Shown in pieces: positions 37,601 through 64,000 of a DNA stretch of 64,000 nucleotides (its first letter is position 1; each line of letters starts with the position of its first letter). A program made the position numbers. The DNA comes from Thalassobaculaceae bacterium (GTDB taxonomy: Bacteria; Pseudomonadota; Alphaproteobacteria; Thalassobaculales; Thalassobaculaceae): positions 4,384,616 to 4,448,615 of the forward strand of contig OZ245843.1 in NCBI GenBank assembly GCA_965228875.1, in the 5' to 3' direction.

Positions 37601-40600
37601 CGCGCCGGAACACCGTATGCTTGTCGACGAAGGCGTGGTTGACCCGGCCGGTCTGGATGATGTGGTTGGCGATGAAGTTCAGCAGCACCAGGTCGGTCTG
37701 CGGCTTGAACACCATCGCGATGTCCGCGAGATCGAAGCACCGGTGCTCGAAGGTCGACAGCACGCCGACCTTCACATGCGGCGCGCTGAGACGTCTGTCG
37801 GTCACCCGCGTCCACAGGATCGGGTGCATCTCCGCCATGTTGGAGCCCCACAGGAAGAACGCGTCCGCCGCCTCGATGTCGTCGTAGCAGCCCATCGGCT
37901 CGTCCATGCCGAAGGTGCGCATGAAGCCGCCGACGGCCGAGGCCATGCAGTGGCGGGCGTTGGGGTCGATGTTGTTCGATCGGAACCCTGCCTTGAACAG
38001 CTTGGAGGCGGCGTACCCCTCCCAGACGGTCCATTGGCCGGAGCCGAACATGCCGACGGCGGAGGGACCCTTCTCCGCGAGGGCCTTCTTGAACTTCTCC
38101 GCCATGATGTCGAAGGCCTGGTCCCAGCTCACCGGGGTGAAGGCGCCATCCTTGGCGTACGCGCCGTCCCGCATGCGCAGCAGCGGCGTCGTCAGGCGAT
38201 CGCGGCCGTACATGATCTTCGACAGGAAGTAGCCCTTGACGCAGTTCAGGCCCCGGTTGACCTCGGCCTTGGCGTCGCCATGGGTGGCCACGACCCGGTT
38301 GTCCTTGGTGGCGACCATCACCGAGCAGCCGGTGCCGCAGAACCGGCAGGGTGCCTTCGACCACTTCAGGTCCGTCTGCGACCGGTCGGTGACCAGGTTC
38401 TGGGCCGCGGCGGGCGCCGCCAGACCCGCGGCCGCGGTCGCGGCCAGCAAAGCCTGCGCCTTGAGAACGTCCCGCCTGCTCGTTCTAACCTTGTTCATCA
38501 CCGACTCCTTCAGCATTCCCGTTCACCGCGTCCGCCGCCGGAGCGGGCGGGGACGCATCGATGTCGATCCCGTGAAAGACCAGGTTGCAGCTCAGGACGC
38601 CGGCGAGGCCCGTGAACCGGTGCGCCAGGTCGGCGATCGTTCCCTGATCGGGGCTCTCGAGCACGGCGATCAGCGTCCCGGTCGGATGTGTCACGGGCAC
38701 CTCCACGCCGGGCTCGGCCGCGACCATGGCGGCAAGCGATTGCAGCGCCGTCGGTCGGCACTGGATCAGCAGACTGGCGATGTGGCATTCGGTGCTCATG
38801 CCGCCTCCGCGCACATAGTGATGGCGCCGACGGGGCAGGAGCCGGCACAGGCGCCGCAGCCGGTGCACTTGTCCGGATCGACCTCCGGGCGGGGCGGTCC
38901 GCCGAGACGCGGTCGGAACCGCATGGCGGCCTCGCCGCAGACGTCCCGACAGGCCTCGCAATGGACGCCGGCAGCGGCGAGGCAGCACCGATCGGAGATA
39001 GCGGGGCGTACGGTCCAGGCCGGGCCGCCGCTGGGCTCGAAGACCTCCGCGGTGCAGCTCCGGGCACACGCCCCGCAGAAGGTGCACTCGCCCGAACCGC
39101 TTCCGAAGTCGATCTCGGGGAAGCCGCCTTCGCCGGCGATGAGGATGTGTTCCGGACAGGCGTCGATGCAGTCACCGCAGCGTGTACAGGCATCGAGGAC
39201 GCGCCGGGTATCGGTCCATGGCGGACGGAGCGCCTCGGACGCCCGCGCCGCCGCCGGCCGAAGGGCGCCTGTCAGAAAGGCCCGGCGGGCGCGGTCGGGC
39301 CGGTCCGATGGCTGCGCTCGGGTCATCCGGCCGGCGGTCCCGGCGGCCCGAGGAGGATCTGCGATATCCAGACGACGAACCCGTAGGCCCCGACGAACCC
39401 GACGGCGAGCCCGGGGAACACCACGAAGGTGGTCACCAGGAAGGCCATGACTTCCTGGCGTCGGGTTGCCGGCGGTTCGTCGCGCATATTGCCTCGCGCA
39501 AGCCCGGACATCACGCTGAGCCCTCCCTAGTCGTTCGGCATTCTTTTTCGACGATCGAGCGTCGTTTGTTGTCGTCGACGCTACGCCGGCACCGGCTCGA
39601 CCGCCTTGACTTCGGTCAAGCGCAACGATCTTCTGAGCCGAGCGTCTCAATTATTTCCCGCCGTCCGTCGGTACCGTCATGCTCGCCGCTGAAGATCTCA
39701 GGGCCGCCACCCTCTTCTCACGTCTCTCGGATCCCGAGGTCGACGCCCTGATCCCGATCCTCCGGGTCCAAGACCTGCCCAAGGGGACGTCGCTGTTCCG
39801 CGAGGGGGAGCCGATGGACCGGCTCTATCTCGTCATCAGCGGCTGGGTCACGCTGTTCCGCGATACCAGCGCCGGCCAGCGCGTGGTCATCCGGGTCTTC
39901 GGTCCCGGCGAAACCCTGGCTGAGGCGGCGTTGTTCCTCGACAGTATGTTTCCGGTCAGCGGTGAGGTGGCGGAGAATGCCCGCCTGGCCTCCCTGGATC
40001 GTCGAGCGTTCGAGCGGCTGCTCACGACCTCACCGCGGGTTGCCACCGGCATGATCGCTTCGCTGGCCATGCACCTGCGTGCCCTGACGATCGAGATCGA
40101 ACAACTCAAGACCCGCACCGCCACGGAGCGCGTCGCAGCCTTTCTGCTTACATGCTGCCCCGACCGGGGGCAGGCGGACTGCAGTTTCGAGTTGCCCTAC
40201 GACAAGAGCCTGATCGCCCAGCGCCTGGGCATGCAACCGGAGAGCCTTTCCCGGAATCTGGCCAGACTTCGTTCACACGGGATCTCCGTGGACCGCAATC
40301 GGGTGATTGTCGGCTCTCCGGGGGCTTTGGAACAAGCTCTGCGATCCGGCGACCTCGGGCGGTCGTTGGCGGGCTAGGACGCGCGGCCTGTTCTCGACGG
40401 AACTGTCGCCACCTGTGGTGGAAGACTTGTGCCGGAAGCCGGCCGGGTGGGTTGACGGAAGACCGCCGGGGGCCGCAGACTTCGTCCCGGGTTTCACCAA
40501 GGCATCAACCTGCGAAGGCGTCGGGGCCGGCACCGTTGCGTGCGATCCCTGAGCGTCGGATGAGGCAGGCGTCGAAAGGGGGCGGACGTGGCGGTACGGT

Positions 40601-61600: not shown

Positions 61601-64000
61601 AAGATGCGATTGCGCCTCGGATACGCGGAAGGCGCGGCCTCCGATGCCGGCGGGTACGATGTGCAGACCAACCTCATGTATCCGCTGTCGGCGGACCCCG
61701 AAGGGCCCAGTCTGGTGTTCGCTGTCTGGAGCGCGGAACCGATCCTCGACGGCTTCGCGCCGGTGTCGCAGCAGCGGACCGACGAGTTCCTTGCGGCGCT
61801 CCGCGCGGCTGTGGATGCGTCCAATGCGTCGGACGACGCCGCCAGGCTCTATGCCCGCACGGTGACGATCACCGTGGCCCGGTAGACGGCGCGGGTACGG
61901 GGCTAGGCAGGGGGAGGAGAAGCACGGGATGGATGCTGGCGTGTTTTCGGCCGACGCGGTGCTTCATGCCGCGCTGTATGGCACGTTCATCGTCATGATC
62001 GTTGCGATCGCCGCCAACGACTGCGCCGGCGCGGTCGCGCTGGTCTGCGTCGACGGCACGGTCGACATGCGCGCAGCGCAGGTCCTGATCGCGGTGTTCC
62101 TGGTTGTGGGCGCCGTGTTCGTCGCGCCACCCGTCCTCGATCGCCTGATTCTGCCGCTGATCGCCCTGGAGGACTTCCGCGCCGCACCCTTTGCCGGACC
62201 GACGGTCCTGTTCAGCGCCGTCGTGCCGCTGGCGCTGGCGACGGTGTTCGGCGTCCCGGTCTCCGCATCGGCTCTGGTGGTCCTGGCCGTCCTCGGGGTC
62301 ATCGTCGAGCGCGGAGGAGGCGTCGATGCCGCCGCGGCTGGCCGGCTGGCGTTCGCACTGCTGCTGCTGCCCGCCATAGCCTGCGGGGTCGGTCGAGGGT
62401 TGGCGTGGGCGTTTCGGGACCGAGCCGTTTCGGGCTCCCGGCCGCGCGATGCGCTGACCTGGGCTCTCCCGGGACTGGCGGCGTTGCTCGCCGCAGCGAC
62501 CGTCGTCGTCGTCGCGCTGCTGACGGATCTGCACGGGCCCGTCGCGCAGGTCTCGGCGATCGTCGCGGGCATCGCTGTCATCGCGGCCTTCGCGGTCGGC
62601 GGCGTGTATCTGCTGCGCATTCGCCGGTCGCCGTTCTGGGTGTCCAACGACCGTCAAGGGTTCGAGGCGGCGCATGGATCGCTGTCGCTGGCGTGCGGCG
62701 CCCTCGGCGGCCTGTTGCTCAGCGGTGTCAATGTCGGCATGGCGATTGCGCTTTTGTCGGTCCTGCTGAACGGGGGAGGCGCCGGCGTGAGCTTCGCCAG
62801 CCCGCCGCTCTGGCTCGGCCTCGGGCTGGCGTTCCTGACCGTTCTGCTGGCCGGCCATCATCTGGCGGGACGACTGGAGCGTGCCGGACTGACGCCGGAG
62901 CCGTCGCAGGCCGCGATCGGGACCATAGGCGCGTTCGTCGGCGCCGCGCTGGCGGCCGTCGTGCACGCCCCACTGCCCCCCAGCCTGACACTGGCATCCG
63001 GACAGTGCGGAGCGGCGGGTGACCTCCGCACAACGGCGCGGTGGCTCGGCATCGGACTCCTGGTCGGCCTGCTGTCCTTCGCCCTTTCCTTTGCCGTGGA
63101 TCTGGCGCTCCGCCTTCTGGCGGAGTGACGCCGAAGGGAGCTCGTTGCCATGCTGTCCGCCGCGCTCAGTCAAGTCCATCCGACCGTCGGTTTCGCCGTC
63201 CTGTTGTGTCTGGCCGCCGTGGCCGTGTGCGTGACCGCCATGCCGGTGCTCCGTGGGGCGGCGGCGGGCGTCGATCCCATGACGCTACGACGCGCGGCGC
63301 GCGCCGCGCGGGCGCCGCACCGGCCGCTGCTGTCTCTGTTCAACACGGGCCGGCGCCGGATCGTCGCCCTGGCCGGCATCGGGACGCTTGTTGCCGTGTT
63401 CGGGTTCGGCAGCCTCGGTCTGGTGGCGTTCGACAGCAGGATACGGGGTCAGAATTCGGCGATCGCCGAGCGTCACCGCCTGGAGGGCGAGATCGAGGCG
63501 GCGCGGGCGCAGACGAAGGAGGCGGAACGTCGTGCCAGCGAGGCGCTGGCGGCAAGGGACGAGGCGCATCGCGAGGAGATGCTGGACCAGGAGGCGCGCT
63601 ACCAGAAGCGGATCGAGGAGCTCAAGGCGGAACACCAGGCGGAGGTGAACAGCCTGACCCTGAAGTTCCAGGAGGACCTGGCGCGCCAGGGGGAGACCGA
63701 CGAGTTGAAGAACTCGGTCAGCAGCATGCAGATGCAGCTTCTGGAGCAGACCAACAGGACGCTGACCATCGAACTCGACCGGGCGAAGGAGATCATCCTG
63801 GATCAGGCGGCCCGGATCCGGGCGCTCGAGGAGAAGCTGGCGGAAGGCAACTGACGGACCCGTTCATGGCAGGAACACGGCGGATGGAACGCCCATGATC
63901 ATCGCCAACAGTCAGGTGACGGCCATGCGGTCGGTCGGGTGGACGGCGTGGCGGCAGCGGCATGCCGACGCCCTCGAGTCCCTGCTGCCCGAAATCGCGG

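Follow-up and report, generated by a model that had tools for sequence, protein, structure and literature searches.

The window, a 64,000-nucleotide stretch of contig OZ245843.1 from a marine Thalassobaculaceae bacterium, contains most of T6SS-2, a gene cluster for a type VI secretion system (T6SS). Coordinates are window positions unless stated, and genes are on the + strand unless marked. The single-chain sheath gene (51615..53546) is followed by genes for the Hcp tube protein (53675..54181; PF05638, 6.4e-23) and the baseplate proteins TssE (54305..54793; PF04965 and TIGR03357), TssF (54790..56673; PF05947, 1.6e-164), TssG (56637..57785; PF06996, 7.5e-56) and TssK (57778..59250; PF05936, 7.2e-60). 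Upstream, on the - strand, are genes for a DUF4123 protein (45256..45846; PF13503, 1.1e-29) of the T6SS effector adaptor/chaperone family and for the VgrG spike (45843..48365), which has Phage_GPD, Phage_base_V and Gp5_trimer_C domains and matches TIGR03361 (1.4e-177) over residues 167-677; the true vgrG start is probably ∼150 codons inside this ORF. Two further genes lie before the sheath gene. One predicts an 845-aa envelope protein (48034..50571) with an N-terminal hydrophobic segment and a C-terminal caspase (Peptidase_C14) domain (PF00656, 1.9e-10) that includes SGHG and DSCQSG motifs at residues 647 and 702. The other predicts a 315-aa alpha/beta-hydrolase-like protein (50546..51493) with a weak PF00561 match, below cut-off, and an N-terminal hydrophobic, lipobox-like segment. 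At the far end are genes for a 399-aa polytopic membrane protein with ∼12 TM segments (61929..63128; PF01384 (PHO4), 2.1e-10, above cut-off) and a 234-aa protein with two TM segments and a coiled-coil tail (63150..63854; all family matches sub-threshold), and the start of a 116-aa ORF (63895..64000) that leaves the window. Beyond it, the cluster extends through two ORFs (467 aa and 236 aa) and a DUF3592 membrane protein.

The tssM gene (59372..60409) is short. Its product, 345 aa within a 356-aa stop-to-stop frame, matches only PF14331, the cytoplasmic IcmF-related_N domain, and positions 68-363 of the 1168 in TIGR03348; no TM helix or TM-like segment, periplasmic domain or Walker A motif was found in its sequence. 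Just 66 bases separate it from tssL, and hence no remnant of TssM is left between them. Relatives of ≤420 aa make up 46 of the best 150 representatives, and 27 of these 46 have no TM-like segment. Short soluble TssM is a widespread family rather than a remnant. The tssL gene (60476..61885) is long, and the 469-aa product has a DotU domain (PF09850), a TM helix at 201-219, a 250-aa periplasmic domain and a weak DUF4384 match (E 0.12).

A Tol/Ton-like operon lies upstream of these genes. Its first gene (40588..41043), an ORF supported by GC3, predicts a 151-aa protein with a signal-like hydrophobic segment at 10-28; it matches no family in Pfam or NCBIfam, E<=10 included. Next are an ExbB/TolQ-like proton-channel subunit (40959..41672; PF01618, 1.3e-27; best NCBIfam match TolQ, below cut-off), which is one of 6 MotA/ExbB paralogues in the genome, and two ExbD/TolR-like subunits (41687..42121; PF02472, 1.8e-10, and 42118..42522; PF02472, 1.4e-16). 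These are followed by a 609-aa TonB/TolA-like anchor, u609 (42541..44370), and an OmpA/Pal-like peptidoglycan-binding protein with a signal sequence (44525..45211; PF00691, 6.9e-20), for which the NCBIfam matches, all below cut-offs, include Pal and the OmpA domain of long-form TssL. Assignment of u609 is from sequence and composition. An N-terminal TM helix with S-x3-H-G precedes an Ala/Pro-rich spacer (∼40-330) and a DUF4384-like C-domain (∼340-609). DUF4384 clusters account for 24 of its 30 atlas matches, the homologues P0197-P0199 carry PF14326, and the architecture is kept in P0200.

The u609 C-domain also matches the TssL periplasmic domain, by BLASTP (E 3e-4) and, using the u609 family, by hhalign (93%, E 3.4e-7, 197 columns), though E<=0.01 was not reached in a genome-wide protein search. 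Judged from these alignments, the two domains are homologous (paralogous). In the model (pLDDT 75.9), the first subdomain of the C-domain resembles type III secretion inner-ring proteins (CdsD, Z 9.7, rmsd 1.8; YscD, 7.9) and BON domains. The similarity to a ring-building module is limited to 63 aligned residues, and the fold is a common one; Foldseek returned nothing at E<=0.001. Orthologues of u609 (56% identity) are recorded on two contigs, 28083 and 19669 bases long, equal in size to the contigs of sheath orthologues, and from this equality u609 appears to travel with the sheath on two metagenome contigs. The tie between u609 and TssL, the short-TssM family and the named hosts of fused sheaths (see below) were absent from the genome-wide survey's note.

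The sheath gene is an intact ORF predicting a 643-aa protein in which Pfam places VipA at 10-132, VipB at 208-513 and VipB_2 at 526-627, the layout reported in that note for its gene g04074. Together with NCBIfam this defines TssB (∼1-141) joined to a near full-length TssC (∼150-643). A PDB sequence search matched VipA/TssB as well as VipB/TssC chains, with 34-40% identity to solved TssC chains over at least 420 residues. Contigs from 4 metagenome runs in 4 independent studies cover positions 40588-60500 at ∼98-99% identity and are free of insertions and deletions, and one contig of 3366 bases includes the entire fused gene with 35 substitutions and no gaps. An assembly artefact as the source of the fusion is ruled out by these gap-free contigs. 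Other assemblies hold a 643-aa protein that is 99% identical, and P0003 and P0004 are fused orthologues with 57-58% identity. Searches of 400 genomes from the class and another 400 from the phylum yielded no orthologue.

Local alignment with the genome's own TssB and TssC indicated that TssB (∼1-141) runs straight into TssC, beginning near residue 3 of the latter. At 122 aa, the junction region is ∼27 aa shorter than the 149 aa of the split pair in T6SS-1, and the 75-aa linker proposed earlier is in fact the native TssB C-terminus plus the TssC N-terminus. In the AlphaFold model (pLDDT 87.5, pTM 0.89), a brief, low-confidence loop (139-152) separates the TssB helix from a confidently modelled helix (∼153-169), which aligns to TssC's N-terminal helix. 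The proposal that the helix gripped by ClpV is internal in the fusion is upheld by alignment and model, and the helix is kept. Foldseek matched the model to solved TssC chains (TM 0.80-0.86) and to one TssB chain, and the predicted fold looks like that of a sheath protomer. Junction size varies by lineage among fused sheaths, from 55 to 267 aa, and a marine fused clade has lost ∼60-70 junction residues, the region that holds the helix.

Of the four places in the genome where VipB was found, one is the split TssC of T6SS-1 and another, next to that, a divergent fused copy of 593 aa; the other two are in T6SS-2 and in T6SS-3, where the fusion is 793-820 aa. Only one ClpV exceeds the NCBIfam cut-off (contig 1930290-1932956), the remaining Clp matches being ClpB/ClpA-like, with one ClpB-like gene; the single TssJ match is at contig position 1943629, and ImpA_N (TssA) is restricted to T6SS-1 and T6SS-3. 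No TssA substitute was identified in T6SS-2. Much of the inventory in the genome-wide survey's note is borne out, including the divergent third fusion in T6SS-1, the lack of ClpV and TssJ from T6SS-2 and T6SS-3 and of TssA from T6SS-2, and, by Pfam, the cut-down TssM, 469-aa TssL and ExbB-ExbD-ExbD set of T6SS-2.

Its account of ClpV in other fused-type loci requires revision. ClpV had been counted in 8 of 11 such loci, from which its loss was taken not to be a rule of the fused type, but split genes had been joined by tblastn. Most of the 80 metagenome loci fetched that have a match starting at or before residue 27 contain two adjacent genes. The sample included 26 single-ORF fused loci, none with a ClpV match, and 30 loci with ClpV, in all of which the sheath genes are split. 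ClpV was not found around any truly fused main sheath examined. No ClpV above cut-off was present in 13 fused-sheath genomes; the search took in 79 sheath-bearing genomes, these 13 included, and found ClpV in 38, scoring being per genome at a high cut-off that a divergent ClpV can escape, as in G312, where a ClpV-like half adjoins the sheath genes. Five of the 13 (G015, G200, G232, G331 and G360; completeness 88-98%) have no Clp-type match at E<=1e-50. Fused sheaths annotated only as "large subunit" were found in Bilophila wadsworthia and in small, endosymbiont-like genomes of Alphaproteobacteria, the named hosts being B. wadsworthia and Candidatus Cytomitobacter. The compact Bilophila-type cluster includes TssJ, K, L, M and A, the fused sheath, Hcp, TssF, TssG, VgrG and PAAR and is flanked by non-T6SS genes; ClpV was not found in it. 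Full-text literature searches, like the earlier ones, found no paper on natural TssB-TssC fusions.

The tree rows comprise 39 split with ClpV, 26 split without, 13 fused without and none fused with ClpV (naive Fisher p 7e-5). However, a phylogenetically controlled test using independent pairs was not significant for fusion and ClpV loss. The nearest split relatives are also without ClpV, and what the data show is fusion on a ClpV-less background rather than a coupling of fusion to the loss. On the trees, 11-12 changes of the fused state are counted, and a single fused clade is rejected by the AU test (delta lnL 392, p 6e-69). Sheath fusion thus arose independently at least 11 times, with different junctions. 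The fused proteins nest inside T6SS-i TssC clades and, on this placement, arose secondarily by the joining of TssB to TssC instead of being single chains kept from an ancestor. Single-chain sheaths are an outcome that recurs among T6SS lineages in which no ClpV was found.

We have a slight preference for the interpretation that T6SS-2 is a ClpV-independent, single-chain-sheath system with a rebuilt envelope anchor. The firing machine in the cytoplasm would be ordinary (Hcp, VgrG, TssE, TssF, TssG and TssK). The sheath protomer would be one polypeptide, TssB minus its last ∼20-25 residues, head-to-tail with essentially full-length TssC. Both joined termini are predicted to lie in the surface-exposed sheath domain normally recognised by ClpV, and assembly of the sheath should therefore remain possible despite the fusion. 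With no cognate ClpV, spent sheath would most likely go unrecycled or be left to a general chaperone or protease. In the envelope, TssM would be a soluble cytoplasmic domain, TssJ would have no part, and the TssL periplasmic domain would consist of a ring-building/BON-like module and a beta-sandwich. ExbB, the two ExbD subunits, u609 and the Pal-like OmpA protein may supply the connection across the periplasm and to peptidoglycan, possibly driven by proton-motive force.

Four canonical components (TssM, TssA, TssJ and ClpV) are missing or reduced, as would be expected if T6SS-2 were a decaying, non-functional remnant in which gene loss explains the gaps and sheath fusion is a neutral accident. 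No RNA run holding the region was found, so the cluster could be silent, and no sheath orthologue was found in the class and phylum genomes searched. Nevertheless, decay seems quite improbable given that every ORF is intact with gene-like GC3, that indels are absent across strains in 4 studies (∼98-99% identity), and that the 57-58% identical fused orthologues share the architecture. The conserved layout of u609 in P0200, the breadth of the TM-less short TssM family and the 66-base gap before tssL, with no TssM leftover, also argue against it. Fusion would be irrelevant to recycling if the sheaths were recycled normally in trans by the T6SS-1 ClpV or by ClpB. The genome has one gene of each type, the TssC-type helix is kept at ∼153-169, and Francisella is described as relying on ClpB for its T6SS. 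This is unlikely, since in enteroaggregative E. coli ClpV is specific to its own cluster by way of TssC's N-terminal helix, and ClpV1 and ClpV2 are not interchangeable there (PMC5048182). Moreover, none of the 13 fused-sheath genomes has ClpV above cut-off, 5 have no Clp-type match at E<=1e-50, and the marine fused clade has lost the helix-holding region.

A less remote, though still doubtful, alternative is that the ExbB-ExbD-ExbD, TonB/TolA-like and OmpA genes belong to an unrelated Tol/Ton-type system that merely adjoins T6SS genes. They form a separate operon convergent with vgrG-DUF4123, MotA/ExbB paralogues number 6 in the genome, and no paper was found that ties ExbBD or TolQR to T6SS membrane complexes. 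Against this are the homology of the u609 C-domain to the TssL periplasmic domain, the occurrence of u609 and sheath orthologues twice on contigs of equal size, and the lack of the usual periplasmic parts in T6SS-2. A ClpV-independent system with a rebuilt anchor remains our preferred reading.

Contractile phage tails, R-pyocins and extracellular contractile injection systems (eCIS) have a one-polypeptide sheath protomer, no ClpV-type recycling and are used once. Phage and eCIS sheath proteins gave weak Foldseek matches to the T6SS-2 sheath model, but the fused proteins described here belong within T6SS-i TssC clades. T6SS-2 shares Hcp, VgrG, TssE, TssF, TssG, TssK, TssL and the sheath fold with the canonical T6SS-i (Vibrio cholerae VipA/VipB/ClpV, TssJLM), and differs in having TssB-TssC as one chain, no ClpV, TssJ or TssA, a soluble TssM N-domain and a new TssL periplasmic domain. 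The T6SS-ii of Francisella and the systems of Campylobacter and Holosporales, which are working or presumed so, likewise have no dedicated ClpV, and the gene list for Holosporales in PMC8163844 names none. Unlike in T6SS-2, the small and large sheath genes of these systems are separate as described, and the relevant sections of PMC8163844 make no mention of fused versions in small alphaproteobacterial genomes.

There is precedent for replacement of an envelope part of a T6SS. In the portions of the studies concerned, TssJ is reported absent in Acinetobacter (with TsmK) and in 27.5% of the other tssB+tssM genomes (PMC10564176), and Bacteroidota have a non-canonical TssNQOPR membrane complex (PMC10781749). 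However, Acinetobacter TssM is full-length, whereas in T6SS-2 nothing is left of TssM's transmembrane and periplasmic part, and the linkage is instead to a Tol/Ton-like set having a TssL-like periplasmic domain. Neither TolB nor a TonB-dependent receptor was found in the T6SS-2 cluster. As in Tol-Pal and TonB-ExbB-ExbD, the set has ExbB/TolQ, two ExbD/TolR genes and an OmpA/Pal-like protein, and u609 resembles their anchors in its N-terminal TM helix with S-x3-H and long Ala/Pro-rich spacer. It differs from them at the other end, where the TonB_C or TolA C-domain is replaced by a DUF4384-like domain in common with TssL.

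T6SS-2, the type VI secretion cluster that occupies the window from position 40588 onward, encodes both sheath subunits in a single 643 aa chain (window 51615-53546, + strand). Pfam places VipA at residues 10-132, VipB at 208-513 and VipB_2 at 526-627, TIGR03355 scores 405 bits (cut-off 271), and among solved structures the protein has matches to small as well as large sheath chains. Contigs from 4 metagenome runs, belonging to 4 studies, cover window 40588-60500 and differ from it by substitutions only, which rules out an assembly or frameshift artefact as the source of the fusion. 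With three Pfam domains in one frame and the gene intact across the four studies, the natural TssB-TssC fusion described in the genome-wide survey's note is real. Near-identical forms of the core of the cluster (window 50600-60500) were also seen in roughly a dozen studies, in metagenomes of seawater, aquatic, pond, coral and aquaculture origin, and the organism, or at least its T6SS-2 cluster, is widespread in marine samples. No RNA run was among the matches when sequencing runs were searched with the same interval.

Aligned to the split pair of the same genome, a TssB of 165 aa and a TssC of 495 aa, the fused protein keeps TssB to approximately residue 141 and TssC from approximately residue 3, and TssC's N-terminal helix is retained. 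The distance from the Pro of the TssB motif DFxPE to the His of the TssC motif ILHH is 122 residues in the fused protein versus 149 in the split pair. Hence, the junction previously read as a 75 aa linker consists of native TssB and TssC sequence and is shorter than its split counterpart. An AlphaFold model built with 80 sequences (pLDDT 87.5, pTM 0.89) has a sheath-like fold, superposing with TM 0.80-0.86 on TssC chains of known structure and also on a TssB chain; low confidence is confined to residues 139-152, after which a helix at 153-169 is modelled with confidence. Domain 3 of the sheath, which is exposed and mobile, is made up of the C-terminus of VipA and the N-terminus of VipB. Chains deposited for V. 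cholerae are shorter in the contracted than in the extended state (VipA 125 versus 159 aa; VipB 432 versus 473 aa), which fits this mobility, and a covalent join of TssB to TssC within domain 3 should be sterically harmless.

The GC content of the T6SS-2 region is 0.62-0.72, so genes were chosen by third-position GC, and the chosen ORFs were scanned against Pfam and NCBIfam. The first operon (+ strand) comprises an ORF for a 151 aa signal-bearing protein, an ExbB/TolQ-like gene, two ExbD/TolR-like genes, a gene for a 609 aa protein without a Pfam or NCBIfam family (window 42541-44370, + strand; hereafter the anchor) and an OmpA/Pal-like gene. vgrG and a DUF4123 gene lie on the - strand, convergent to this operon. 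A second, long operon (+ strand) includes, in order, genes for a caspase-domain envelope protein and an alpha/beta-hydrolase-like protein, the sheath gene, hcp, tssE, tssF, tssG, tssK, a tssM of 345 aa, a tssL of 469 aa, and genes for a 12-TM PHO4-like protein and for a coiled-coil protein with two TM segments. T6SS-2 continues past the end of the window with three ORFs (116, 467 and 236 aa) and a DUF3592 protein; an atlas search with the 467 aa ORF gave scores of 0.83 or lower and no family. The limits of the cluster were fixed by a Crp/Fnr-type regulator gene (window 39679-40377, + strand) and the periplasmic nitrate reductase genes napC, napB and napA (window 34891-38516, - strand) just upstream of 40588, and by an autotransporter downstream. 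A scan of 40000-54500 for promoters and terminators returned nothing exceeding shuffled controls. The caspase protein (Peptidase_C14; window 48034-50571, + strand), encoded between vgrG and the sheath gene, has kept its His and Cys motifs, and the 12-TM protein (window 61929-63128, + strand), directly after tssL in the same operon, matches the PHO4 phosphate-transporter family over the cut-off.

The tube, spike and baseplate of T6SS-2 are represented by Hcp, VgrG, TssE, TssF, TssG and TssK. All six are over the Pfam cut-offs, and five are over those of NCBIfam, with Hcp just under (51.9 bits, cut-off 58.9). In the membrane complex TssL is present; TssJ and a periplasm-spanning TssM were not found. 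The single TssJ match and the sole ClpV match over cut-off in the genome (the latter at contig 1.93 Mb) are both in T6SS-1, the canonical cluster, and ClpB/ClpA-like genes occur elsewhere. No T6SS-2 ORF carries ImpA_N, and the two ImpA_N genes of the genome belong to T6SS-1 and T6SS-3. These distributions uphold the survey's statements that T6SS-2 and T6SS-3 are without ClpV and TssJ and that T6SS-2 has no TssA; the cut-down TssM it described is likewise confirmed, Pfam and NCBIfam both finding the N-domain only, and so is the length of TssL. The genome has four VipB places and three IcmF-N domains, the T6SS-2 copy of the latter lying in a 356 aa open frame. T6SS-1 includes ClpV, TssJ, TssA, TagF, a kinase and a 1217 aa TssM with all four Pfam domains. 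T6SS-3 includes a 793 aa fused sheath, TssA, a 1348 aa TssM, TssL, a SPOR protein, TssK, TssF, TssG, TssE, Hcp, VgrG, DUF2169 and a PAAR-like protein, and neither ClpV nor TssJ was found in it. In the T6SS-3 TssM (contig 4537677-4543276) only the IcmF-related N-domain was matched, and the three periplasmic Pfam domains of the T6SS-1 TssM were not detected. The SPOR-domain gene follows tssL in that cluster.

Closest to the T6SS-2 sheath are fused metagenome proteins at 57-58% identity, all others being at 40% or below. No relatives were found on scanning the genome contig collection, and no T6SS-2-type orthologue was detected in 400 genomes of the class or in another 400 from the phylum. A search restricted to longer proteins, made with a profile of the TssB parts, retrieved 51 proteins, nearly all of them VipA plus VipB in a single chain. 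They are named only ImpC or "large subunit", in line with the earlier remark that fused sheath genes are annotated simply as ImpC. Among 80 metagenome loci, 26 have one ORF spanning both parts (22 of human-gut type, 4 marine), and the remainder have adjacent split genes joined by tblastn. A ClpV match is present in 30 of the 80, and all 30 are split; none of the 26 fused loci has one. The previous count of ClpV in 8 of 11 fused-type loci arose because tblastn had joined adjacent split sheath genes, and it does not stand. The human-gut type is that of Bilophila wadsworthia, in which a compact cluster (TssJ, K, L, M, A, fused sheath, Hcp, TssF, TssG, VgrG, PAAR) is flanked by a GGDEF gene and a histidine kinase; no ClpV was found in clusters of this type. 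The marine fused clusters include TssJ/K/L/M, the fused sheath and baseplate genes, and ClpV was not found there.

Of 400 genomes drawn evenly from the class, 79, including this one, carry a sheath gene. VipA and VipB are in one 635-690 aa frame in 13 of the 79 (6 of the 13 confirmed by Pfam), and all 13 genomes are 0.5-2.0 Mb. ClpV over cut-off is present in 38 of the 79 sheath-bearing genomes and in none of the 13. Five of these 13 (G015, G200, G232, G331 and G360; 88-98% complete) have no Clp-type (ClpB/ClpV) match at E≤1e-50; if this absence is real, no Clp unfoldase would be available there for sheath disassembly. One of the 13 fused proteins is identical to a record from Candidatus Cytomitobacter. 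In the portions of PMC8163844 that treat Holosporales T6SSs, tssB and tssC are listed separately and ClpV is not named.

In trees of the TssC parts (FastTree, n=113; IQ-TREE, n=59), fused proteins occupy many separate, well-supported positions: a marine clade within the group of T6SS-1, a long-branch clade with T6SS-2, T6SS-3 near the Bilophila type, and several among the small genomes. Parsimony requires 11-12 state changes, and grouping all fused proteins in one clade is rejected by an AU test (delta lnL 392, p 6e-69). Junction lengths are lineage-specific (55, 77-90, 114-122, 114-168, 182-185 and 267 residues). The tree rows comprise 39 split with ClpV, 26 split without, 13 fused without and 0 fused with ClpV. 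A naive Fisher test on these rows gives p 7e-5; in an independent-pairs test, fusion and ClpV loss show no significant association, since the split sheaths that are sister to fused ones are also without ClpV. TssB and TssC have thus been fused repeatedly, and every case in these data had a background in which ClpV was not found.

Several other long or divergent frames were seen. A 593 aa TssB-TssC-like paralogue (contig 1940208-1941989), encoded between tssA and tssJ of the ClpV-bearing T6SS-1, has VipA at 24-111, a partial VipB and no VipB_2. Similar frames occur in three other genomes of the same TssC clade (G069:C4:168817, G075:C14:16440 and G093:C71:53396), and the paralogue seems to be an accessory gene that is conserved, not a main sheath. 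In the metagenome protein P0122 (1517 aa), a single chain combines VipB, VipA, a TIR/SEFIR domain and VipB_2. A 1719 aa ORF of G093 (locus L111:11953-17112) begins with a strong VipA match and carries another VipA, together with VipB, towards its end; given the GC-rich genome, it could be several genes in one frame.

Single-chain protomers would build the contractile sheath, and no dedicated ClpV would unfold the spent sheath, which may be used only once, diluted out, degraded or dealt with by ClpB. Alternatively, the ClpV of T6SS-1 might serve the fused sheaths in trans. The relevant part of PMC5048182 reports that E. coli ClpV binds TssC's N-terminal helix and is cluster-specific, and this specificity makes such service by the T6SS-1 ClpV less likely.

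The TssM of T6SS-2 has neither a TM-like segment nor a Walker A motif. It is a member of a family rather than a wreck, as 46 of the best 150 of 2751 relatives found by phmmer are ≤420 aa and 27 of these 46 are without a TM-like segment. That it is half of a split gene was rejected, since 66 bases separate its stop from the start of tssL and the periplasmic Pfam domains of TssM were matched by none of the ORFs downstream. TssL has a single TM helix (201-219) and a periplasmic domain of 250 aa, which scores E 0.12 against the DUF4384 model (PF14326).

This periplasmic domain is shared with the anchor, whose gene lies directly downstream of ExbB-ExbD-ExbD. The anchor has S22-x3-H26-G inside its TM segment, kept in the database proteins P0200 and P0197, followed by a spacer with 22% Ala and 13% Pro and a C-domain of approximately 270 aa. 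A TM S-x3-H with an extended Pro/Ala-rich spacer is the TonB/TolA signature; no Pfam or NCBIfam match to a TonB_C or TolA C-terminal domain was found in the 609 aa protein. The C-domain matches the TssL periplasmic domain by BLASTP (E 3e-4) and in a profile comparison (93% probability, E 3.4e-7, 197 columns), and a genome-wide search with it returned only itself at E≤0.01. It does not match the PF14326 model, which is present in its homologues of 35-44% identity, and DUF4384 clusters account for 24 of the 30 atlas matches, suggesting that the C-domain is DUF4384-like and probably belongs with these proteins. DUF4384, the closest family to the domain that TssL and the anchor share, is named in papers on bacterial orthocaspases.

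In the model of the C-domain (pLDDT 75.9), an alpha/beta module precedes a beta-sandwich. The module (alpha-beta-beta-alpha-beta) is small, and its best structural matches are T3SS periplasmic ring domains (VIA-align Z 9.7 for CdsD, 7.9 for YscD, about 6 for PrgK, EscJ and PrgH) and BON domains; PrgK, EscJ, DolP and OsmY together span Z 6.2-7.4, and the alignments cover 60-77 residues of a common fold. Foldseek of the C-domain model against the PDB gave nothing at E≤0.001. A relationship of the module to secretion-system ring domains is a lead from modelling. Anchor orthologues (56% identity) are on contigs of 28083 and 19669 bases, and the contigs of the fused-sheath orthologues have identical sizes, which is indirect evidence that the anchor and sheath genes stay together in another organism.

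The periplasmic connection normally given by TssM and TssJ may be supplied in T6SS-2 by the periplasmic domain of TssL, perhaps together with the paralogous domain of the anchor and the Pal-like protein, and proton-motive force may reach this connection through ExbB and ExbD. That joining TssB to TssC is tolerated only after ClpV disassembly has been given up, and that T6SS-2 has a new envelope architecture, is put forward tentatively, as a possible rather than a probable account. If true, single-chain sheaths would mark a recurrent "no-recycle" or differently recycled class of T6SS that includes Bilophila wadsworthia and reduced endosymbionts, and in T6SS-2 the place of the TssJ-TssM conduit would be taken by a TssL periplasmic ring and a Tol/Ton-like module driven by proton-motive force. 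If such sheaths arise only once ClpV has been lost, the fusion experiment has been carried out in nature many times over, and a testable rule would follow, namely whether tethering TssB to TssC blocks unfoldase-driven disassembly. It would also flag T6SSs of a human-gut organism and of endosymbionts that are now filed under ordinary "large subunit" genes.

Two features regarded as core to proteobacterial T6SSs are the TssJLM conduit and the recycling of the sheath by ClpV. In the literature searched (mostly open-access main texts), no description was found of natural TssB-TssC fusions, consistent with the earlier search, nor of fusion confined to contexts in which ClpV is not found, soluble TssM domains standing on their own, a Tol/Ton-like set (ExbBD/TolQR) tied to a T6SS, or, in any relevant form, the Bilophila T6SS. 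T6SSs without ClpV are already known, and loss of TssJ alone is likewise known (PMC10564176). Judged from sequence and models, T6SS-2 can with moderate confidence be considered a known kind of T6SS with novel features. Its envelope anchor, with a soluble TssM domain, a ring-module TssL and a linked Tol/Ton-like set, would be a further, distinct solution to crossing the envelope and the first hint of a proton-motive-force motor coupled to a T6SS.
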